64,000 nt of DNA from Christensenellales bacterium (GTDB lineage: Bacteria; Bacillota; Clostridia; Christensenellales; UBA3700). The stretch is from positions 8,506 to 72,505 of the forward strand of contig JBJETR010000072.1 in NCBI GenBank assembly GCA_051883415.1. Direction: 5' to 3'. The position numbers and the translations under genes were made by a program. The notes below the pieces were generated by a model. It was not told where the DNA came from and made no database searches. It saw only the letters and a program-made list of their open reading frames with translations. Positions 38,568 through 51,877 of this stretch are shown here, piece after piece. Numbering within the stretch: position 1 is the first letter of the stretch; each line of letters opens with the position of its first letter.

Positions 38568-41500
38568 TCAGGAAATGGTTATTCCCGTATCTTCTACTTG
38601 GATAAATCCGCCGTAATTGCTACCGCTGATAAGTGTATTGCCACTGTGTCTTACACCGTAGCCGTCTGCTTTGACTACTTTGTCCAAGACGTCCTTGATA
38701 GTCCACTTCTTTTCCGGTATAGTTACACCACCGACCTTGTCGATGCTGATAATCTCGGTTTCTAGTATCTTTGTTTTGAGCGTTGCGGTAGAATCGAACA
38801 AAGTGGTATCACCCTCGCTCGCCGTACGGTTGCTGTTGATGATATCTTTGAGTATCTTTTGCTCATCTGAAGTCATATTGTTGAACATCAACGTAGTAGC
38901 ATAATCGCTTGCATCCACGTCGATAAACACCGTTGCGTCAATGCTGGTAGGGAGCAAAGTCGTAGTCTTGGTCATCAGTGCACTCGTATTGATATTGAGC
39001 GTCATCAACATATACGAATGGTCGTCGGTAAAGGTCATTCCGCCAAGACCGTCTTTGACCGTGGCTGCATTGGCGTAGTTAGGATTGAACATAAGCACTT
39101 GCTTGTAGCTTACGCTCTCTTTGGTCAATCCCAAAGCCGTAGATACACCGCTGCCGGACTCTTCGTTGGCGAGCAGAGTTGCGGCTATATTGCGGTCGCT
39201 GATTTCCATAACGACTTCTCCGTGAGGGGTTGGCGTTATTACGTAGCTGGCACTGATTTGTCCACTTGTCATTTTGTCTGTCGTAGCATTGATATCCGTC
39301 TGTCCCACGGTAGGAGTGAGAGTAAACAGCGATTTCATCATATTTTGGAAGTCTAGCTCGCTCGGTTTAGCCCCGTCGCTGTAGATATTGTTGATTGCCA
39401 CGCCGTAGATGCTTGCGAAGGTAACGGTACCACCCTTGCAGTTGACGTTGATATCGGCGGTATCGTAAGTCATCGTTGCACCACCCGTCATATCACGGAG
39501 TTTGTCCTTGACCTTGGTCGAGGCGTCGGCGTTGATATCGTCAGGCGTAACAGTCTTGTTGGCTACCGCCTTGAAGAGGTTGCAGAACACGCCCAAATCT
39601 TCGTCCGTCATATCGTTGAGCGTAAAGTCGGTACATACTTCTACTCCTTCGACCTTGGAAGTATCGACTTCCACTACTATTGCCACACTACTTGGCAACA
39701 GCTTAGCATATTTGTCGGTTTCTTGCGACTCGACGCTTGCCGTAAATACTATACGCAAGGTGGTGGTTGAGGTGACGGTAAGACTAATCATTGTTACGTC
39801 TTTCATACCCTCGGCACTCACGGTAACGTCACCGCTGAGCAGTCTTCCGAGTTCTCCGCCGCTTGCCTGAGGTTTGAGGTCGTTGCCGTTGGTGACCACC
39901 CTCGTGTCGTCCGCCATACGTTGACCGCTTATCAAAGTAGAGTAATCTCTTGCAACACTAGCGATTTGACTAGATACGTCGCCATTAGCATCAATAGCCG
40001 TGTTGAGGTAATACTTATCGCTGATATCGCCTGCCAATCTACTCATATCGCTTGCAATATTGCTATCGGCAAGTTCTGCAGGTATCACGTTGACTTTTTG
40101 CAACACGCTTCTAAGCTGTACGTTGGTAGGTACGAGTGCAGGATCGCTGTCGGCATAAATTTGGTCAATAGCGATATCGAACACCGTAGTGTTGAGTTTC
40201 ATCTCGCCGACTTGGAATAATATCTCTATAGTTCCGCCCGCCTCAATCTCTGTCATAAAATTATAGATATTATCTTCTAGTGCGGTGCCTACTTGCGTAG
40301 CTGTCACTTCACTTCCGCCGAGCTTGGTAGCCAAAGCGAAAAAGTCATTCATCTCGTCATTAGTCATACCGTCGATATCAAAGCTCGTACAATCGTCGGT
40401 ACTTATTCCCGCAATTTTGTTCTTGAGAGCGACCGTATCCACGTATACGTTGACGTATACTTTGTCAGGCAACAATACTGCGTACTTAGCATTCTCACCC
40501 GTGAGGCTTACTTTTCCGCTTATCTGCATATTGAGATGAGTCGCCGTAATATCGGTAGCTACAACGGTGATGTCCGTAAGCACGCTGACGATATTGTCAA
40601 GCTTGCCGCTGGATTGAATGAGGAAGCCTAGTTCTTCTTGACTAAGCACAGGTTTTAGTAGGTTGATGTCGGCAGTGGTGTCCGTAGCCATCTTGTGGAC
40701 GTCGATACTGCTCTCAAAGTTATTTTTGATAGTAGTAACGGAGTTGAACAATGCCGAGCCGTTAGTTGCATCCAACGTACCCGTGGTCAAATAATATTTG
40801 TTCTCCAACTCGGTTACAAATCCCGTCGCATTATTCGAAGCATTGGCTTCTTGGGCTTCGAAGGTGTAGGTTGCTCTAAGCATATCGTGGAGCTCCTTGT
40901 CGTCGACGATGGCAACTCCGCCCTCGTCTTGGAGCATCTTCAAGCCCGACGCCGTCTCGAAGATAGAAGGCAATACGCATTCGGTGGAAACAAACTCTAT
41001 ATCGGTGCCGAGTTTGGAGTTGATATTGGTTAGATTGTCTCTCACGCTCTTCTCGAGTTTAGAGGTCAACTCGGCAAGGTTGAGCTGACTGACGTCTATA
41101 CCGAGGCTACCGCACAAAGTGTTGAGATTGGTCAGAAGCTCGGTCGTCTGCTCTACGTCACACTTGTTGATACGTATCTCTGTTGGTTTGGCAGGATCGG
41201 ATACTAGGCTCAATTTTGCTTTGATAAATATTTGCTCAGGCAAAATTTGAGGAGCAAACACCGCAACGAGTGAACCCTCTTCCGCCTTGCCTACAACGGC
41301 TTGCATTACGTCTACCGCAATGCTTACTTCGAGCATTTCGTTGGTTTGGTCATAAGCCATATTGAGCACGGTGATTGGGAATGCGCTCGCTTCTTCGCTA
41401 CCCGTGGCTAGTTGGCTGTTGAGTAAGCCTGCCAATGCAAGATAGGAGATACCAACCTTGTGTTTGGCTGCATTGTAACTATACGTGTCGTAGTCAAGGC

Positions 41501-42824
41501 TGGCAAAATCGAGCTTTGCAAGCATCTTATCGTCGTTCATAATTCCCGTAATACTAGTAAAGACGTTGTCGGTTGTGATAGTGTCGTCCGAGTTGTCAAA
41601 ACCGTATTTGGTAGTAAACTCGTCTATAAAGGTAGCGAGATTTTGGGTACGCAAATCATCGGTATACGAGTCCAGACCTACGTCGGTAGCGTTAGGAAGC
41701 TTGAAATCTCTAATCAAACACAAAAATTGTGCTTCTCCAAGTTCTACGTTTAGTACGTTCATCAAAGCTTCGACAGGCTTCATATCACAGCCCGAATCTA
41801 CGAAAGTGAGAGGAATGACGGTATTGAGCTTGTCGATTACGCTCTTGACGGCATTGTTGATGGTCTGCATGATAGGCGTATCTCCACCTGCAAACTTGTT
41901 GAGGACGCCCTCGACCTTAGTCATCAAATCTCTGTCAATTTGGTTGATGAGAATACTTGCCTGACCGTTCTCAGCATTTGGCTTGACGTCCATGCCGACG
42001 AATACCGTCTTAGGCAATAAGTTGGCGACAAAGCCTGGCACAGACGTATTCTTGAGTAGCTCGGTTGCAAGTGAAGCCACGTCGATTTTGACAGTGAGTG
42101 ACAAAACTACGTCTTCCAGCTTTGCGCCCGCATCGCTGTCAATCACAATTTGCGACACTTTGGCATGCTTGAGGTATGGCGCATATTGTGATATCGCTCC
42201 CATAGCAGAATCTTCGGAAGAAACACCTTGGGTAATATAATATTGCAAAACGCTGTCTATCAATGCGGCGAATTGCTTGTCGGTAACTTCCAAGATATTC
42301 TCTTCGCCACTATAAGTAGCGAGCGAAGAAAAGTCAAATTCTATCTTGCTCAGCAAATCGTCCAGAGCGGCATTGCCCGTGCCCGTAGGGGTTTCCGACA
42401 AAGCCATCGGAGTGGAAGATTCCTCTTGCTTCTTAGCCGTTGCACTGTCCAAAATGTCGATGATGTCGATATCGCTATCTGCCGACATATACGTCTTGAC
42501 CTTGAATTCGCTGTAGAAATAATCGAGGTCGTTTTGACTATAAGGGTTGGTGACGATTTTTTCTTCATCGGCTTTGTATAAGCCTTTCAAAATATTGAAG
42601 GCGTCGGTTATACTCAATCCAACTTGTGGTTCTACGTATTGTCCCCATGCCCATACTCCACCGCCGATAACGCCGGCAACAAGCACAACGAATATAACTA
42701 ACACGGTGATAAAACACGTTAGACAACCGTGCTTCTTCTTTGGTTTAGGCTCTTTGTTAGCTTTGTTTTTGCTCTCGCCTTTGACCTTGATTTCGTTGAG
42801 ATCTATTTTATCTTTCTTTGCCAT
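38568..42824 (-). CDS. 1418-aa membrane-anchored protein with five diverged ~258-aa repeats
   Basis: Basic N-terminus, one TM, then periodic (L/I)LP...(I/L/F)N.M motifs; GAGGT RBS; terminator at 38538-38563. Confidence 0.85.
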   Translation of the reverse strand: MAKKDKIDLNEIKVKGESKNKANKEPKPKKKHGCLTCFITVLVIFVVLVAGVIGGGVWAWGQYVEPQVGLSITDAFNILKGLYKADEEKIVTNPYSQNDLDYFYSEFKVKTYMSADSDIDIIDILDSATAKKQEESSTPMALSETPTGTGNAALDDLLSKIEFDFSSLATYSGEENILEVTDKQFAALIDSVLQYYITQGVSSEDSAMGAISQYAPYLKHAKVSQIVIDSDAGAKLEDVVLSLTVKIDVASLATELLKNTSVPGFVANLLPKTVFVGMDVKPNAENGQASILINQIDRDLMTKVEGVLNKFAGGDTPIMQTINNAVKSVIDKLNTVIPLTFVDSGCDMKPVEALMNVLNVELGEAQFLCLIRDFKLPNATDVGLDSYTDDLRTQNLATFIDEFTTKYGFDNSDDTITTDNVFTSITGIMNDDKMLAKLDFASLDYDTYSYNAAKHKVGISYLALAGLLNSQLATGSEEASAFPITVLNMAYDQTNEMLEVSIAVDVMQAVVGKAEEGSLVAVFAPQILPEQIFIKAKLSLVSDPAKPTEIRINKCDVEQTTELLTNLNTLCGSLGIDVSQLNLAELTSKLEKSVRDNLTNINSKLGTDIEFVSTECVLPSIFETASGLKMLQDEGGVAIVDDKELHDMLRATYTFEAQEANASNNATGFVTELENKYYLTTGTLDATNGSALFNSVTTIKNNFESSIDVHKMATDTTADINLLKPVLSQEELGFLIQSSGKLDNIVSVLTDITVVATDITATHLNMQISGKVSLTGENAKYAVLLPDKVYVNVYVDTVALKNKIAGISTDDCTSFDIDGMTNDEMNDFFALATKLGGSEVTATQVGTALEDNIYNFMTEIEAGGTIEILFQVGEMKLNTTVFDIAIDQIYADSDPALVPTNVQLRSVLQKVNVIPAELADSNIASDMSRLAGDISDKYYLNTAIDANGDVSSQIASVARDYSTLISGQRMADDTRVVTNGNDLKPQASGGELGRLLSGDVTVSAEGMKDVTMISLTVTSTTTLRIVFTASVESQETDKYAKLLPSSVAIVVEVDTSKVEGVEVCTDFTLNDMTDEDLGVFCNLFKAVANKTVTPDDINADASTKVKDKLRDMTGGATMTYDTADINVNCKGGTVTFASIYGVAINNIYSDGAKPSELDFQNMMKSLFTLTPTVGQTDINATTDKMTSGQISASYVITPTPHGEVVMEISDRNIAATLLANEESGSGVSTALGLTKESVSYKQVLMFNPNYANAATVKDGLGGMTFTDDHSYMLMTLNINTSALMTKTTTLLPTSIDATVFIDVDASDYATTLMFNNMTSDEQKILKDIINSNRTASEGDTTLFDSTATLKTKILETEIISIDKVGGVTIPEKKWTIKDVLDKVVKADGYGVRHSGNTLISGSNYGGFIQVEDTGITIS

Positions 42825-43099: not shown

Positions 43100-44029
43100 A
43101 TTAGAGGCAATCCCTCCGTCTTGCCATAAGCGGCTCGCTCACGGTGGAGATGCGAGTTTGACAAGGAGAGTGAGGACGGTGTGAGGGAGCATACTAATGC
43201 GTATGTGACCGAACGTACCCACATACTCGACACAGTATTGCGAAGTATATACGCCGTGAGACAACCCCTTTGCACAAAGGGGCCTTTTATTAGGTTGAGA
43301 TTGCCACAGCGTGTAAACACGCTTCGCAATGACATACAACCTTTTGACGGTGGAGATGCGAGTTTGACAACCCTTCCACCACCTTCGGTGGTAACTCTTA
43401 CGGCATAGGTGCGAGTTAGGCGAGGAGAACGAGGATTGGGCGACAGGAGCATACTTATCTCAATTCGTAATAAGTAACTAAGTAGTAGTTCTCTCGTGGT
43501 GTAGATACAAGCAAGACAAGGAGTACGAGTATTTTGTGCAGGGAGCATACTCCTTGTATGTGACCAAACAAAAACGTAAGTTACGACACAGTATTGCGAA
43601 GTATATACGCCACGAGAGCGACAAAGCATATCGATAAAGATATGCCGTAAGACACCCTTCCCGAACACAAGGGCGGCTTTTTATAAGATTGAGATTGCCA
43701 AGTTACGTTTCGCTCCACCGCAATGACACACTGCTTGGTCGGTGTTCCAACCCATTTTGACGGCATAGCTGCGAGTAAGACAAGAAAAAGGCAACCTTGT
43801 CGATTGCCTCAATTTGTTATTAGTTGCAATGGTGCCGCTCTATCGCGGTGGAGATGCGAGTAATGAGAGAGTTTGATTTATGTTATTGAGATTTTAATTG
43901 CACAGGTGCGAGTAAGACAAGGAAAAAGGCAACTTTATCGAAGCGAGCGTACTTGGCGTACGTGAGCAAGAAAAGTTGCCTTTTGACACAGTATTACGAA
44001 GTAGATATGCAATTAAAACTCAATAACAC
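43100..44029. repeat. Cluster of nested REP/MITE-like structured repeats
   Basis: Three full ~125-bp copies (43138-43260, 43491-43618, 43892-44018), partial copies, and two GAGATTGCCA...GCAATGAC hairpins. Confidence 0.8.
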
Positions 44030-47000
44030 CGCTGAAGACTTCAACCGACGTCCCCTTCAACATCACGCCCTCGTCGGTATATCTGACTACCATATCGCCA
44101 CCGATTTGCTTGACGGTGATGTCGGTGTCCTTTGGAAGGTAGCCGTTGAGGACGGCGCTGACTACTACGGCACAGCTTCCGCTACCGCTGGCATAGGTTT
44201 CGCCGCAGCCTTTGTCCCACGTGCGAATTTTGACGGTGTGACGGTCTATGACCTTGGCAAACTCTACGTTGGTACGGTCAGGGAATATGCTGTCGTACTC
44301 GAGTTGAGAGCCGAGTTTGGATATATCGATATTGTCGAGATGTTCGACGAATAACACGCAGTGTGGATTGCCCATAGATACGACGTTGAGCATATACTCT
44401 TTGCCGTCTACGGTGTATGGCACGCCAATTGCGTTTTTGCCTGCTAGTTTGACAGGAATGAGTGCCGGTTTGAGAATAGGCGAGCCCATATTGACTGTCA
44501 TATACGTTGCTTCGCCGTCTTGCGTCTTGACGTTGATATCTCTGATACCCGTTGGCGTCTCGATAGTTATGTCGTACTTGTTGACCTTACGATTGTCGTA
44601 GAGATATTTGGCTACTCCGAACAAGCCGTTGCCACATACCATACCTTGAGAGCCGTCACAGTTGAAGATACGCATCTTGGCATCGGCAACCTCCGACTTC
44701 TCGATAAGGATAATGCCTTCCGCACCTACACCGACGTGTCTATCGGACATTCTTACCGCAACGCCCTCAGGATTGTCGATAGTTACACCGTCCAGACAGT
44801 CGAAGAATATTCTATCGTTGCCTGCACTGTGCATCTTGACAAACTTGTGACTTTGTTTGCCCTTGCGAAGTTTGTTGATATCTACAAGCTCGGTATTGTA
44901 CTCGCTGTATCTGCTCATGAGGCAGTTGGCTACCGCATTGGCGGTGTCGATAGAGGTAAGACAAGGGATAGAACGCTCTACCGCCTTTCTTCTTATCTTG
45001 ACGCTGTCGCGAGTCGGCAATTTGCCCTTGGACGAGGTGGAGATGATATAGTCGATTTTTCCACTCTCGATGAGGGTAAGGTTGTTGTGCTCGAGGTTTT
45101 GGTGAATCTTGTCTACCGTAACGACCTCTAGTCCTCTCTCTCTCAGCACACGTGCAGTGCCCTTAGTTGCGTACAAGGTGTAGCCCAAATCTTCGAACTT
45201 CTGAGCGATGTCGCCTATCTCCGCCTTGTCTTGGTCACGCACTGTGATGAATATACCACCCTTTTTCTTCATACGGTAGCCTGCCGCAACCAAACCCTTG
45301 AACAAGGCTTCTTCCAACGTGTCGGCAAGTCCCAAAACTTCGCCCGTGGACTTCATCTCAGGTCCGAGTTGAGTGTCTACGTTGACGAGCTTGGCAAAGG
45401 AGAATACAGGCACCTTGACTGCTACGTAGTTGGACTTTGGATAGAGTCCCGTGCCGTAGCCCATATCGGCAAGCTTTTCACCCAATATGCATCTGGTGGC
45501 AAGGTCTACCATCGGTACTCCCGTCACCTTGCTGATATAAGGAATGGTACGCGAGCTACGAGGGTTGACTTCGATAACGTATAGTTCTTCTTCGTAGATA
45601 AGGTATTGAATATTGACGAGTCCGACAGTGTGCAAGTTGATTGCAAGTAGCTTAGAGCACTCGACTATTCTTGCGAGCATTTCGTCGCTGAGGTTCCAAG
45701 AAGGATATACGGCAATCGAGTCGCCCGAGTGTATGCCCGTACGCTCGATATGTTGCATAACTCCCGGGATAAGTATCTCTTCGCCGTCGCATATAGCGTC
45801 GATTTCTATCTCTCTACCCATGAGATATTTGTCGATAAGTACCGGATTTTCTATCTTTTGGGAGAGGATTACGTCCATATATTCGATGACGTCGGCGTCG
45901 GAGTGGCATACGCACATGTTTTGTCCGCCAAGCACGTAAGACGGACGTAGCAAGGTAGGATATCCTATCTTGTTGGCTACCTCCAAAGCTTCCTCTTTGG
46001 TCATTATGGTGTAACCCACGGGACGCTTGATTTGTAATCTTTCGAGCAACTCGTCGAAGAGTTCTCTATCCTCCGCCATGTCGATATATTCGGCTTGAGT
46101 GCCGAGAATCTTGATATTACGTTCTCTAAAGAGTTTGGTGAGCTTGATAGCCGTCTGTCCACCGAAGGCTACGACTACGCCGTCAGGCTTCTCGGTGTGA
46201 AGAATGTTGAGCACGTCTTCGTTGGTGAGAGGCTCGAAGTATAGTCTGTCGGCAGTATCGAAGTCGGTGGATACCGTCTCGGGATTGTTGTTGACTATGA
46301 CTACTTCGTAGCCCTTGCGTTTGAGAGCCCATACACAGTGCACGGACGCATAGTCAAACTCTACGCCTTGTCCGATACGGATAGGTCCGCTACCGAATAC
46401 GATAACTTTCTTTTTGCCTTGAGAATGAGCTTGGATAAACTGCTCGGCTTCGTTGTCGCTGTCGTAGGTGGAATAGAAGTAAGGCGTCTGCGCAGGGAAT
46501 TCCGCCGAACACGTGTCTACCATCTTGTACGAAGCGTACACAGGATTGGCAATCTTTTTGCCACTAATTCTCTCGATAGAACTGTCGAGGAAACCTACCT
46601 TTTTGGCTTGTAGATAGAGCTCGTCGTCAAGGTCGTCGCTCGATAAGCGCTTCTCGATATCTAAGATATTGACGAGTTTGTTGAGGAACCACCTGTCTAT
46701 TCTCGTCTTGGTGTGAATCTCGTTGACGGTGACGCCCCTCTTGAGAAGTTCGTAGATGACGAAGAGTCTTTCGTCATCACATGCGAGCATCTTGTCTTGC
46801 AATTCCATGTCGCTCATTGCGGCAATCTTCTTGTTGTAGAGGGTATCCATGGAGATTTCCGCACCTCTTACAGCCTTCATCAAGGCTTGTTCGAAGGAAG
46901 AACCGATGGACATTACTTCGCCCGTTGCTTTCATTTGCGTGCCGAGTTGACGGCTAGCGTAGAAGAATTTGTCGAACGGCCACTTAGGGAATTTGACTAC

Positions 47001-48059
47001 GATATAGTCGACCGTAGGCTCGTTGCAGGCGTAGGTGCAACCCGTAACGGCGTTTTTGATTTCGTCAAGGCTGTAGCCGATTGCAATCTTGGTGGCTACT
47101 TTGGCTATCGGATAACCCGTTGCCTTGCTGGCAAGCGCCGAGCTACGACTGACGCGTGGATTGACTTCGATAACGGCGTATTCTAAACTGTCGGGATGCA
47201 ATGCAAATTGCACGTTGCAACCACCCTCGACTCGGAGTGCGTTGACGATTTTGAGCGCCGCACTGCGAAGCATTCCGAATTCTTTCTCCGATAGCGTTAC
47301 CGCAGGAGCAACGACTATACTGTCACCCGTGTGCACGCCGACAGGATCAACGTTCTCCATACTACATACCGTAATGCAATTGCCCTTGCTATCTCTTATT
47401 ACTTCGAACTCGATTTCTTTCCAACCGCTTATACACTTCTCGACCAATATCTGGTGAATAGGACTGAGGCGAAGTCCGTTCTCGGCGATGTCTTCGAACT
47501 CATCTTGGTTGTGAGCGATACCGCCGCCCGTTCCGCCCAAAGTAAATGCCGGACGTATGATGACTGGATAACCAATCTCTCTTGCTACCCTTATGCCGTC
47601 GTCCATGGTATTGACGACCTCGGAAGGAATGACGGGCTCGTTAATCTCTGCGAGCGTGTCCTTGAAGCTTTGTCTGTCCTCGGCTCTATCTATCGTCTCG
47701 GGATTGGCGCCCAAAAGTCGTACGCCCATCTTGTCAAGGAAGCCTTCCTTGGCGAGTTGCATGCTGAGAGTAAGTCCCGTCTGTCCGCCGAGTGTGGACA
47801 AAAGACTGTCGGGACGCTCCTTCTCGATAATTCTCTTGACGGTGGTGAGCGTCAAAGGCTCGATATATATCCTGTCTGCCACCGCATTGTCGGTCTGTAT
47901 AGTTGCCGGATTGGAATTGACAAGCACGACTTCGAGATTGTCTTCTTTGAGCGCTCTGCACGCTTGAGTGCCTGCATAGTCAAATTCCGCAGCCTGTCCG
48001 ATGACGATTGGTCCCGAACCTATTACCATTACTTTGTGCAAATCTTTGTTGAGTGGCAT
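44013..48059 (-). CDS. carB: Carbamoyl-phosphate synthase large subunit fused to a C-terminal DapF-like domain
   Basis: GSGPIVIGQAAEFDY, two ATP-grasp domains (EVNPR), MGS domain, then FVKMHSAGND...CGNG...MGNPH...TNVEF in the same frame. Confidence 0.95.
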   Translation of the reverse strand: MPLNKDLHKVMVIGSGPIVIGQAAEFDYAGTQACRALKEDNLEVVLVNSNPATIQTDNAVADRIYIEPLTLTTVKRIIEKERPDSLLSTLGGQTGLTLSMQLAKEGFLDKMGVRLLGANPETIDRAEDRQSFKDTLAEINEPVIPSEVVNTMDDGIRVAREIGYPVIIRPAFTLGGTGGGIAHNQDEFEDIAENGLRLSPIHQILVEKCISGWKEIEFEVIRDSKGNCITVCSMENVDPVGVHTGDSIVVAPAVTLSEKEFGMLRSAALKIVNALRVEGGCNVQFALHPDSLEYAVIEVNPRVSRSSALASKATGYPIAKVATKIAIGYSLDEIKNAVTGCTYACNEPTVDYIVVKFPKWPFDKFFYASRQLGTQMKATGEVMSIGSSFEQALMKAVRGAEISMDTLYNKKIAAMSDMELQDKMLACDDERLFVIYELLKRGVTVNEIHTKTRIDRWFLNKLVNILDIEKRLSSDDLDDELYLQAKKVGFLDSSIERISGKKIANPVYASYKMVDTCSAEFPAQTPYFYSTYDSDNEAEQFIQAHSQGKKKVIVFGSGPIRIGQGVEFDYASVHCVWALKRKGYEVVIVNNNPETVSTDFDTADRLYFEPLTNEDVLNILHTEKPDGVVVAFGGQTAIKLTKLFRERNIKILGTQAEYIDMAEDRELFDELLERLQIKRPVGYTIMTKEEALEVANKIGYPTLLRPSYVLGGQNMCVCHSDADVIEYMDVILSQKIENPVLIDKYLMGREIEIDAICDGEEILIPGVMQHIERTGIHSGDSIAVYPSWNLSDEMLARIVECSKLLAINLHTVGLVNIQYLIYEEELYVIEVNPRSSRTIPYISKVTGVPMVDLATRCILGEKLADMGYGTGLYPKSNYVAVKVPVFSFAKLVNVDTQLGPEMKSTGEVLGLADTLEEALFKGLVAAGYRMKKKGGIFITVRDQDKAEIGDIAQKFEDLGYTLYATKGTARVLRERGLEVVTVDKIHQNLEHNNLTLIESGKIDYIISTSSKGKLPTRDSVKIRRKAVERSIPCLTSIDTANAVANCLMSRYSEYNTELVDINKLRKGKQSHKFVKMHSAGNDRIFFDCLDGVTIDNPEGVAVRMSDRHVGVGAEGIILIEKSEVADAKMRIFNCDGSQGMVCGNGLFGVAKYLYDNRKVNKYDITIETPTGIRDINVKTQDGEATYMTVNMGSPILKPALIPVKLAGKNAIGVPYTVDGKEYMLNVVSMGNPHCVLFVEHLDNIDISKLGSQLEYDSIFPDRTNVEFAKVIDRHTVKIRTWDKGCGETYASGSGSCAVVVSAVLNGYLPKDTDITVKQIGGDMVVRYTDEGVMLKGTSVEVFSGVIEF

Positions 48060-49120
48060 TATCTATTCTCCTTTGTCATATTGATAAATTGGTCGTATAT
48101 AAAATCCGTTGCTATAGGTCCACCGTTGAAGCTTGGTAAAAACTCGGTGGAGATTGCCGTATAGCAGTCGTATTCCAAGCCCTCTACGCTACCGTCGTTG
48201 ACATTGACGAAGGCTGTTTTTACGCCCTTGGCATCGCTGAGGTCAAGGTCTGTATTATGGTTTTGGTATGTGACAAATAAGCGACCTGTATCGAGTTTTT
48301 TGGTAGGTTGGTTGCTTCCGTGATGTCCGTATTTCATATCTTTGAGCTTAGCTCCGCACGAGAGTGCCATGAGCTTGTGTCCCAATCCTATACCAAGCAT
48401 TGGTAGCTTTTTGCCGACCTTAGCAATATTATCAACCACACTATCGTAATCGCTCACTCTATCACTGCCCGATGACCAAACTACGCCGACAGGATTGGTA
48501 GCGAGTATTTGCTCCGCGGTTGTGTCCGCACCAACAATCTCTACGCTCATTCCTTTAGCAACCAGGCTGTCTGCGATATCGTAAACTTCTCCCAAATCGA
48601 CTAGACAAACCTTGTCGCCCTTGCCTACTATTTTACCCGAATTATTGGCACCTCTACCTTGGATAGACGTGCTTGGATCGTAACTAGCCAGCAGTGCTTT
48701 TTGCTCCTCGTCAAGACTTGACGAAGAAGTAATCAAGGCGTTGACGGAGCCGTTATCTCTGATGATTTTGGTAAGGTGGCGAGTGTCGATGCCTGCCATG
48801 CCTACCACGCCTCGCTCTTGCATCAACTTAGCAATGCAACCTACGCTACGGAAGTTGGATGGCTTGTCACACACCTCTCTGACAAGAACTGCCTTGACGT
48901 GACTGTCCTTGCCCTCCACGTCACTGTTGACGCCGTAATTGCCAAATGCGGGAAAAGTGTCTACGACTATCTGCCCCTCGTAACACTCGTCGGTGAGCAA
49001 AGTCATATCCCCACCCATTGCGGTGTTGAATACCAGCTGTCCCACTACTTGTTTGCGTGCTCCGAAAGCCATGCCTTCAAAGACTTGTCCACTTGCAAGA
49101 TACAAATAAATTTTGTCCAT
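48059..49120 (-). CDS. carA: Carbamoyl-phosphate synthase small subunit, glutaminase triad absent
   Basis: LVFNTAMGG, GIDTRHLT, YGHHGSNQP, YQNH; but GIGLGH replaces GICLGH and FLPS replaces (Y/F)HPE. Confidence 0.9.
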   Translation of the reverse strand: MDKIYLYLASGQVFEGMAFGARKQVVGQLVFNTAMGGDMTLLTDECYEGQIVVDTFPAFGNYGVNSDVEGKDSHVKAVLVREVCDKPSNFRSVGCIAKLMQERGVVGMAGIDTRHLTKIIRDNGSVNALITSSSSLDEEQKALLASYDPSTSIQGRGANNSGKIVGKGDKVCLVDLGEVYDIADSLVAKGMSVEIVGADTTAEQILATNPVGVVWSSGSDRVSDYDSVVDNIAKVGKKLPMLGIGLGHKLMALSCGAKLKDMKYGHHGSNQPTKKLDTGRLFVTYQNHNTDLDLSDAKGVKTAFVNVNDGSVEGLEYDCYTAISTEFLPSFNGGPIATDFIYDQFINMTKENR

Positions 49121-49252: not shown

Positions 49253-49466
49253 AAATCTCCTATTAGTACGATTGTCAGCAACGAGTATTGTCATTGCTCA
49301 TAGTTGCTCGACACCATTGCCGAGCCATTATTAAAATAATACGCTAAACTACCCCTTGGTGTCAATCTAAAATAGGCAAAAAAATAATATTTATTTGGCT
49401 CAATTTTAATGACACAAAGGCGTGATTTTGGTATACTAAATGCGTATTTTATCTATGGAGGTTTTT

Positions 49467-50888
49467 ATGCAAAAGGCTATCAACGACAAAATTCACGAAG
49501 AATGCGGTATTTTCGGCATATACGACAAATCCAAAGCCGGCAGTATTGCCAGCACGGTATATTACGGCTTATTCGCTCTTCAACACCGCGGTCAAGAAGC
49601 TGCCGGTATAGCTGTCAACTTCAATAGAGAGATTACTCTCGTGAGAGGTCTCGGCTTGGTGAGTGACGTATTTAAGCACAAAGACCTTGCCTCAATGCCG
49701 GGCGATATCGCCATTGGTCACGTAAGATATAGTTCCGGTCCGTTTAAGGGTGTGGAAAATGCTCAACCCATCACAGTCAACTACGCCAAAGGCAACCTTA
49801 CCGTGGCACACAACGGCAATATTACCAACTCGCAAGCTTTGCGAACGGCTCTAGAAAATCAAGGCGCAATATTCCACTCCAACAACGACAGCGAAATAAT
49901 CTGCTATCTCATAGCAAGAGAAAGACTAAAATGCAAGACGATTGAGGAGGCAGTTGCCAACGTAGTGCCTATGCTCAAAGGTGCATTCTCATTGCTAATC
50001 ATGAGTCCTACCAAGCTCATCGCATTGAGAGATCCTCTCGGCATCAGACCTCTATGTATGGGCTATATCAACGAGAGCGTCGTATTCGCTAGCGAAACTT
50101 GTGCTCTCGAAACGGTGGGCGCAAGATTTGAAAGAGATATCAAACCGGGTGAAATATTGGTGGTTAGCAAGGACGATATGTATAGCGATATGCGCTTTGC
50201 CACCGACAAGTCGGCACTGTGCATATTCGAACACGTGTACTTCGCAAGGCCCGATAGCACCATAGACAACCAAAGCGTCAACGAGGCTCGTATGAATGCG
50301 GGTAAGCTGCTGGCTATGCAATATCCCGTAGACGCAGACTTGGTAATAGGCGTGCCGGATAGCGGTCTTTGTAGTGCGATAGGCTACTCCGCTCAAAGCG
50401 GTATCCCTTACGGCACGGGACTCATCAAAAATAGATATATAGGAAGAACCTTTATTCAACCTACCCAAGCCATGAGAGAGAGAAGCGTTGCTCTCAAACT
50501 CAACGCTTTGGAGAGCAACGTCAAGGGCAAACGTATAGTGATGATCGACGACTCCATCGTAAGAGGCACTACCCTCAAAAATATCGTCAAATTGCTAAAA
50601 ACCGCCGGAGCAACCGAAGTGCACGTTCGTATCAGCTCGCCTAAATTCTTGTATCCTTGCTTCTACGGCACCGATATCCCCGATAGAAGTTGCCTAGCCG
50701 CAGTCAAGTGGACGGAAGAAGAAATTAGACAAAACCTAGATGCAGATACTCTTGGTTTCCTCAAACTAGAAAGCGTAAAAGATATCGCTCCTTGCTCGAC
50801 GACAGACTTTTGTACCGCCTGCTTTGACGGCAAATATCCGTCTTGCGTGGACAACACTATCGACTCGCAATTTATCGACAAACTGTAG
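49467..50888 (+). CDS. purF: Amidophosphoribosyltransferase
   Basis: Propeptide then EECGIFG (Cys1 intact), QHRGQE, DDSIVRGTT, Fe-S cysteines (CTACF). Confidence 0.97.
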   Translation: MQKAINDKIHEECGIFGIYDKSKAGSIASTVYYGLFALQHRGQEAAGIAVNFNREITLVRGLGLVSDVFKHKDLASMPGDIAIGHVRYSSGPFKGVENAQPITVNYAKGNLTVAHNGNITNSQALRTALENQGAIFHSNNDSEIICYLIARERLKCKTIEEAVANVVPMLKGAFSLLIMSPTKLIALRDPLGIRPLCMGYINESVVFASETCALETVGARFERDIKPGEILVVSKDDMYSDMRFATDKSALCIFEHVYFARPDSTIDNQSVNEARMNAGKLLAMQYPVDADLVIGVPDSGLCSAIGYSAQSGIPYGTGLIKNRYIGRTFIQPTQAMRERSVALKLNALESNVKGKRIVMIDDSIVRGTTLKNIVKLLKTAGATEVHVRISSPKFLYPCFYGTDIPDRSCLAAVKWTEEEIRQNLDADTLGFLKLESVKDIAPCSTTDFCTACFDGKYPSCVDNTIDSQFIDKL

Positions 50889-50896
50889 GAGAAAAT

Positions 50897-51877
50897 ATGT
50901 ACCAATCTCAACTAAATCTTATTCAAACCGAAATAGCTATCAAAACCATCAAGGACAACTTTGAAAAGTTCTTAGCAGGCAACCTAAACTTGACGAGAGT
51001 TTCCGCTCCCCTCTTCGTGCTAAACGATACGGGGCTCAACGATAACCTCAACGGCGTAGAACGCCCGGTAAGCTTTGATATCAAACAAACCGGCAAGACG
51101 GCGGAAGTCGTACATTCTCTGGCAAAATGGAAGAGATATGCTCTGCACTACTACGGCTTCGAGGTGGACAGCGGTCTATATACCGATATGAACGCTATAC
51201 GCCGTGACGAGGAATGTGACGAAATCCACTCTCTATACGTAGACCAATGGGATTGGGAAAGAGTCATCAGCGAAGAAGAACGCAACCTCGCTTTCCTCAA
51301 GGAAATCGTAGGCAAGATATACGACGCTATCTATTCTACTGCCAACCTCATCGAAAGCACGTACGGTCTTGAAAACTTTTTGCCTAAACAAATCACCTTT
51401 ATCACCTCGCAAGAGTTGGAAGACATTTATCCCGACCTCGAGCCTAAGGAGAGAGAGAACGAACTAGCTAAACAACTCGGTGCAATATTCATCATAGGTA
51501 TCGGCGACGAATTGAAATCGGGCAAGCCTCACGACAACCGCGCACCCGACTACGACGACTGGGCTCTCAACGGCGACCTCATCGTATGGTATCCCGTGCT
51601 CAACCGTTCGGTGGAATTGTCGTCGATGGGTATAAGAGTCAACAAGGACGCTATGCTATACCAGCTTAACAAATTAGGTGCATGCGACAGACTCGAGCTT
51701 GCTTTCCACAAGGCTTTGATGAATGACGAATTGCCACTGACTATTGGCGGTGGTATAGGTCAATCTCGCCTCTGCATGGTACTTTTGCACAAGGCACATA
51801 TCGGCGAAGTGCAAAACTCTATTTGGCCCGACGAGATGGTGGAAGAGTGCAAGAATAAAAACATCTTTTTGCTGTAA
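50897..51877 (+). CDS. asnA: Aspartate-ammonia ligase
   Basis: NDNLNGVERPV, HSLAKWKR, VDQWDWE, RAPDYDDW, TIGGGIGQSR. Confidence 0.97.
   Translation: MYQSQLNLIQTEIAIKTIKDNFEKFLAGNLNLTRVSAPLFVLNDTGLNDNLNGVERPVSFDIKQTGKTAEVVHSLAKWKRYALHYYGFEVDSGLYTDMNAIRRDEECDEIHSLYVDQWDWERVISEEERNLAFLKEIVGKIYDAIYSTANLIESTYGLENFLPKQITFITSQELEDIYPDLEPKERENELAKQLGAIFIIGIGDELKSGKPHDNRAPDYDDWALNGDLIVWYPVLNRSVELSSMGIRVNKDAMLYQLNKLGACDRLELAFHKALMNDELPLTIGGGIGQSRLCMVLLHKAHIGEVQNSIWPDEMVEECKNKNIFLL

Follow-up and report, generated by a model that had tools for sequence, protein, structure and literature searches.

The window (the whole 64,000-nt stretch of DNA analysed, from a Christensenellales genome) encodes a CarB protein that runs in frame into a DapF-fold domain with an altered active site, beside a CarA subunit that has lost its glutaminase triad. 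We found that, across genomes carrying this fusion, genome content tracks whether the active site of the DapF domain is intact or broken. The architecture and its parts are already known from databases; the genome-content rule is the addition made here. For the window itself, we develop the reading that the domain is a non-catalytic DapF module docked on an ammonia-using CPS, and we regard the chances of this reading as evenly balanced.

The fusion is a single uninterrupted reading frame

The fusion gene contains no internal stop codon (Table 1). Profile comparisons assign aa 1–1050 of its product to CarB (NCBIfam NF003671, 1470 bits) and aa 1072–1346 to DapF (NCBIfam TIGR00652, 230.5 bits compared to a cut-off of 114.65), and Pfam places both an MGS domain (949–1035) and a DAP_epimerase domain on the same protein. 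With one 1348-aa ORF and both profiles over their cut-offs, the in-frame CarB–DapF fusion claimed in an earlier note on this DNA is confirmed, and all of the DapF motifs quoted there (FVKMHSAGND, FNCDGS..CGNG, SMGNPHCV and FPDRTNVEF) are found in the domain.

The 1349-codon open frame is identical in all six congeneric genomes, which also share the Ser at the second catalytic position. In addition, an independent run contributed a contig (X2, record 20, 44699–44967) that spans the CarB/DapF junction with six differences and no gaps, and both differences listed at the junction fall on third codon positions; sequencing runs with shares below 0.2 were set aside in this comparison. A stop codon between carB and dapF, looked for in the congeners and in the independent contig, is absent. 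The congeneric open frames and the junction-spanning contig therefore rule out an assembly or frameshift artefact. The nearest named records are MAGs of Christensenellales or unclassified Clostridia (91–95%). RNA-library contigs overlap parts of the fusion gene, which by itself is no proof of transcription.

The fusion gene lies downstream of carA* and purF, with asnA as a divergent neighbour. The aspartate–ammonia ligase AsnA uses free ammonia, and its gene is present at 11 related loci. Just 3′ of the fusion ORF (window 43900–44003), many partial contigs were recruited in three runs, which suggests a small repeated element. Farther on, a 1418-aa protein (window 38568–42824, minus strand) carries a hydrophobic stretch at its N-terminus and seems to contain internal repeats; it has no Pfam match, its ESM Atlas matches are all below 0.9, and it is found 3′ of the fusion at seven family loci.

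Table 1. Features of the fusion locus, in window coordinates
Feature	Position	Strand	Basis or remark
carB::dapF* fusion ORF, 1348 aa	44013..48059	-	same open frame in 6/6 congeneric genomes
CPS synthetase core, two ATP-grasp halves and oligomerisation domain	45216..48059	-	Pfam, residue comparison
MGS-like allosteric domain, aa 949–1035	44955..45215	-	Pfam, residue comparison
Linker, ~20 aa, stop-free, predicted ordered (pLDDT about 80–83)	44847..44909	-	
DapF-fold domain, altered active site	44022..44846	-	profile, residue comparison, Foldseek
AGC codon, Ser1291 at E. coli C217 position	44187..44189	-	
carA*, glutaminase-dead small subunit, under selection	48059..49120	-	residue comparison, dN/dS 0.12
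purF	49440..50888	-	upstream, co-oriented; 52% identical to purF of contig C27
asnA, aspartate–ammonia ligase, divergent neighbour	50843..51877	+	PF03590, 357 bits

The DapF domain and CarA have both lost catalytic residues

The fused domain matches DapF in profile, at the score given above, and in fold, with Foldseek matches (target TM 0.81–0.91) and a phmmer E of 7.7e-62 to PDB 2OTN. Its catalytic pair, however, is Cys/Ser rather than the C73 and C217 of E. coli: Cys1142 keeps the first cysteine, and the AGC codon (44189–44187) supplies a serine for the second. The distal-site residues differ as well, with D1282–K1283 at the E208–R209 positions and Phe1147 at R78 (we assume the distal-site roles of E208–R209 and R78), and Arg1083 replaces F/Y13. 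The kept first cysteine, the serine and the ER-to-DK exchange had all been read correctly in the earlier note. R78, E208 and R209 are invariant in 24/24 intact fused and 26/26 separate DapFs, and both cysteines are present in all 26 separate DapFs examined. Consistent with the changed catalytic cysteine and pocket residues, the fused copy is probably not an ordinary active epimerase.

The CarB part contains two ATP-grasp halves and the MGS domain, and 25 of the 28 E. coli catalytic positions that we chose for comparison are identical, while the remaining three match the genome's canonical CarB. The residues that we take to form the MGS nucleotide site (K954, T974, G976, T977, K993 and H995) are kept. 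In contrast to the glutamine-hydrolysing enzyme (EC 6.3.5.5), the partner CarA* lacks the Cys-His-Glu triad: Gly245 stands at the nucleophile C269 and Leu328/Ser330 at H353/E355, in agreement with the earlier claim of a dead CarA. Its score also falls under the TIGR01368 cut-off (292.8 compared to 307.35). Because the CarB synthetase sites are intact and CarA is glutaminase-dead, the window CPS likely makes carbamoyl phosphate from free ammonia (EC 6.3.4.16), as judged from its residues and the presence of pyrB.

Some positions that presumably belong to the subunit interface near the ammonia tunnel differ between loci with dead and active CarA. CarB D258, Y261 and Q262 and CarA K202 and D362 show little or no variation in 33 loci with active CarA and are altered in most or about half of 25 loci with dead CarA, including that of the window. 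At C232, A251 and A314, which we take to be the classic ammonia-gate residues, no difference was found between the dead-CarA and active-CarA sets.

The source genome carries a second operon on another contig (C27; L001:108-9117, G000) with the order pyrG-purF-carA-carB-dapF-dapL. This operon has an intact CarA triad, a separate, intact dapF and a CarB that is 49% identical to the window CarB; the earlier suggestion to look for a stand-alone dapF thus led to one intact copy, on C27. The window CarB could possibly borrow the active C27 CarA, an arrangement that is impossible in 17 genomes where the only carA is a dead one. The source genome also has ddh (on contig C69), pyrB and an arginine operon. 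Since ddh and the intact C27 operon are present, this genome can make meso-DAP without the fused domain. A second carA together with a separate dapF occurs in three of the seven genus genomes (G000, G004 and G005), a patchy distribution that would reflect recent gain or loss of the second operon. A complete dapL is missing in four of the seven.

The fusion is widespread, and most of the best homologues keep both cysteines

Using the DapF domain as query, we found 1862 proteins (741–2359 aa) among 2825 candidates. The best 120 of these all carry the CPS and DAP_epimerase Pfam domains, so the domain-architecture search proposed in the earlier note recovers the fusion, and its guess that the fusion is already in the sequence databases was right; the named proteins among the 120 carry only the name CPS large subunit. 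Their catalytic pairs are C/C (82), S/C (28), G/C (4), C/S (3), S/S (2) and A/C (1). Because 82 of the best 120 homologues keep both cysteines, a half-dead catalytic site is not typical of the family. A search of open-access PMC and bioRxiv records for the fusion or a clostridial ammonia CPS returned, at the level of titles and abstract openings, no paper on the fusion.

Of 41 relatives, 24 have an unbroken fusion, as do at least 46 of 300 genomes across the class Clostridia (with 168 weaker matches besides) and 12 genomes outside Clostridia among 301 phylum-wide. It is found in two contexts: nitrogen-assimilation loci with purF, glutamate synthase, glnA and asnA, to which the window belongs, and arginine operons. 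At ten loci of the nitrogen-assimilation kind (nine fused, one split), dapL lies just 3′ of an intact DapF domain. CarBs lacking the domain occur in seven genomes of one family (f90), with 51–54% identity over the MGS part. In one genome (G237, L065:4798-8829), CarB stops at a TAA codon and an intact dapF begins at the next base, followed by dapL; this split form could be either the ancestral state or a reversal. Another genome (G227, L060:3612-8552) has a second dapF, separate and intact, immediately after an intact fused DapF domain.

Genome content tracks the state of the DapF site

We scored separate dapF, carA, ddh and dapL in 59 fused genomes, comprising all 24 found among the relatives and 35 of 44 further class-wide ones. 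Nine were left out (G102, G128, G171, G185, G235, G279, G302, G306 and G307), six of them congeneric with kept genomes and two cut by contig ends. Absences of genes are read from MAGs that are 78–100% complete, with one at 51%.

In the 17 genomes that have dapL but lack a separate dapF, the DapF site is always intact, with both cysteines. In the remaining genomes, excluding two with dapL fragments only, 7 sites are intact and 33 are broken. The site is intact in all four genomes that lack both ddh and a separate dapF, and all 35 broken domains are accompanied by a backup, either Ddh, a separate dapF or both. On the CarB tree, the DapF site changed state at least nine times and CarA at least ten times. 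Because genome content tracks intact versus broken sites in this way, the fused domain is likely the working epimerase of the DapL route in many relatives, and catalysis was likely lost repeatedly once the domain became dispensable, when the DapL route was lost or duplicated. After correction for kinship, the associations are non-significant, with 4.1/6 (median p 0.125), 3.0/7 (p 0.25) and 4.9/7 (p 0.06) concordant independent pairs and none in the opposite direction.

A widespread CPS of uncultured Clostridia is annotated only as CarB. In many genomes this label masks what is likely their one DAP epimerase, and in others it mis-scores dead DapF copies. In the fusions, nature also offers a graded series that leads from active enzyme to pseudo-enzyme through the state changes counted above.

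Dead CarA follows a similar pattern. A glutaminase-dead CarA is found at 25 of 58 fusion loci (L022–L080 and the window), where it is under purifying selection. Among genomes with a broken DapF, 23 of 34 have it, compared to 2 of 24 with an intact one, and it is accompanied by ddh in 24 of 25 cases; dapL is lost in 15 of 23 genomes with dead CarA compared to 2 of 33. Strict coupling of dead CarA with broken DapF is ruled out by 13 exceptions among the 58, including 11 genomes where an active CarA stands alongside a broken domain. In 17 genomes no carA other than a dead one is present, and pyrB exceeds its cut-off in 59 of 60 genomes; therefore, the CPS of these 17 genomes likely takes free ammonia. 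According to an excerpt of PMC8121099, a bacterial ammonia-dependent CPS was unconfirmed and an open gap in 2021, and the 17 genomes are testable candidates for one. The same excerpt gives fitness data for Bacteroides thetaiotaomicron, which depends on CarAB and DapLF when ammonium is low and on CarB2 and Ddh when it is high. By analogy, the source genome, which carries both gene sets, would mirror this Bacteroides split.

The altered domain is retained under purifying selection

Under a codon model fitted across the seven genus genomes, the CarB core has a dN/dS of 0.018, the DapF domain one of 0.033 and CarA* one of 0.12. In the three genomes where a matched comparison could be made, the altered domain has a lower dN/dS than the active separate dapF (0.030 compared to 0.076), and pairwise estimates agree. 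Decay of the altered domain is ruled out by these low values, although they can also come from selection to keep an abundant protein folded and need not point to a specific role. The MGS region (window 44955–45270; dN/dS taken over aa 931–1066) is nearly frozen in the same seven genomes, with a dN/dS of 0.002 that is lower than that of the core.

An AlphaFold (AF2) model of aa 549–1348 has a pLDDT of 86, a pTM of 0.80 and an ordered linker. When CarB 549–1060 and the DapF domain were modelled as separate chains, the ipSAE was 0.56 compared to 0.00 for the best control, with at least 71% contact agreement between runs and a partner pLDDT of at least 88. The models weakly suggest that the DapF domain docks on the C-terminal half of CarB; the support is weak, with 18 of 157 solved pairs and 2 of 215 mismatched ones having passed at scores no higher than 0.60.

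The docked, non-catalytic module that we favour would have arisen as follows. A nitrogen operon of the order carA-carB-dapF-dapL would have given rise to the fusion of carB with dapF, in which the DapF domain would have converted DapL-made LL-DAP to meso-DAP. Lineages with Ddh or a separate DapF would have lost the catalytic cysteines several times, often along with the CarA glutaminase. At present, the domain may stabilise, oligomerise or tune CarB through protein contact. Catalytically dead E. coli DapF offers a precedent for a contact role: DapF(C73A/C217A) still binds and activates RppH, according to an excerpt of PMC4227774. The related CarBs that do without the domain, and the split form in G237, count against this reading.

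Other possible roles for the domain

Several other explanations would account for the retained domain. The DapF domain could be an amino-acid sensor, with a remodelled pocket for DAP, lysine, ornithine or arginine through which CPS is tuned allosterically, which we consider rather unlikely. It adjoins the MGS allosteric domain, with weakly predicted docking on CarB, and all eight scored pocket residues are kept in 19 of 35 broken domains. Ten changes at otherwise near-invariant DapF positions, fixed in all seven genus genomes, could mean a new specificity. However, in the window's sub-clade the pocket erodes differently per lineage (E208>D/S, R209>K, N157>E/D, N64>Q/G and N190>D), and the MGS nucleotide site is kept within the almost frozen region. 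The evidence is more favourable in a 15-genome clade of the arginine-operon type (L066–L080 and L041), where C73 is replaced by Ala throughout, the MGS nucleotide site is largely eroded and the DAP pocket is mostly kept. This clade is the best candidate for an amino-acid-sensing DapF domain, and the sensor is weaker here because the window lineage has altered its substrate-pocket residues. A broader version, fairly doubtful in our estimation, is that this is a bacterial ammonia-only CPS built from two pseudo-enzymes, a dead glutaminase with a loosened CarA–CarB interface that admits external ammonia and an ex-epimerase that acts as a second allosteric domain and senses amino acids. If true, pyrimidine and arginine synthesis would be tied to cell-wall or lysine status, and such an enzyme would have evolved repeatedly in gut Clostridia.

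The domain could instead be an altered catalyst, a Cys/Ser epimerase or racemase that slowly converts DAP or some other amino acid, and this we hold to be quite unlikely. The altered domain may still bind a ligand or catalyse slowly because Cys1142, N1133, N1231, H1233 and N1264 are retained and the ER-to-DK exchange keeps both charges, as it does in five of the seven genus genomes; Cys1142 is fixed in all seven, and the domain is over the TIGR00652 cut-off. The earlier statement that DapF needs both cysteines proved too strong, as an excerpt of PMC13728532 reports Ser/Ser DapF enzymes and credits them to Lamer 2025. The missing cysteine pair therefore makes activity less likely; a literature search found no data on C73S or C217S mutants of DapF. 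DapF-annotated proteins can also be other racemases, such as HisR (excerpt of PMC11602996), but the same excerpt describes a greatly reduced turnover in single Cys>Ser HisR mutants. Sister lineages carry Ala, Gly or Asn at the catalytic positions, the otherwise invariant R78, E208 and R209 are changed, and the four genus genomes without a complete dapL lack this source of LL-DAP, all of which argue against a catalyst.

We find it distinctly unlikely that the domain is a functionless vestige, conserved only since a misfolded appendage would harm the essential CarB. The loss of catalysis does track dispensability, and surface positions specific to the fused form are few, with six flagged (E1098, A1127, L1153, C1234, T1275 and I1314). 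Nevertheless, one nonsense change would drop 280 aa, and yet all 120 of the nearest MGS-region homologues continue into a DapF domain, no truncation was seen among the 35 broken domains examined, and the domain's dN/dS is below that of the active dapF.

It is very improbable that, as the earlier note had proposed, the domain is a one-cysteine lyase that takes over the supply of ammonia to CarB from the dead CarA: the DapF fold does include Cys/Thr dehydratases, and broken DapF does co-occur with dead CarA, but instead of one conserved cysteine with a fixed partner the domains show C/S, S/C, S/S, N/G, G/C, A/C, A/A and G/S pairs, the first four within a single 11-genome CarA-dead clade that includes the window, 11 broken domains are paired with an active CarA, two dead CarAs accompany an intact domain, and in E. 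coli CPS it is CarA, not a DapF domain, that stands at the ammonia-tunnel entrance. The co-occurrence is better explained by a shared shift to free-ammonia routes.

Comparison with known systems

The fused domain shares its whole fold and most of its motifs with DapF (EC 5.1.1.7; TIGR00652, PF01678; PDB 2OTN, 9MRO and the C217S mutant 2Q9J), and it differs by its fusion to CarB and by the exchanges C217>S, E208–R209>D–K, R78>F and F/Y13>R. Similarly, the window CPS shares the synthetase catalytic residues and the MGS domain with E. coli CarAB (EC 6.3.5.5; PDB 1BXR and 1JDB). Unlike the E. coli enzyme, its CarA is without Cys269, His353 and Glu355, its CarB carries the 280-aa C-terminal DapF domain, and the interface positions D258, Y261 and Q262 are changed.

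Human CPS1 (PDB 5DOT and 5DOU), a single chain activated by N-acetylglutamate, is an ammonia-using CPS that likewise keeps a glutaminase-like domain; it is without a DapF domain and is not an orthologue of the window CPS. The loss of its glutaminase activity is cited in an excerpt of PMC8121099. As described in that excerpt, B. thetaiotaomicron combines in one genome, as here, a glutamine/glutamate-fed carAB and dapLF with free-ammonium alternatives. The excerpt presents its CarB2 as an orphan without a CarA partner and describes no DapF fusion, whereas the window has kept a dead CarA as well as a dead DapF domain.

The E. coli DapF–RppH pair (excerpt of PMC4227774; PDB 6D13 and 5YGU) is an earlier case in which the DapF fold serves as an activator independently of its catalysis. 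There, the partner is a Nudix hydrolase in trans, while the likely partner of the window domain is CarB in cis.
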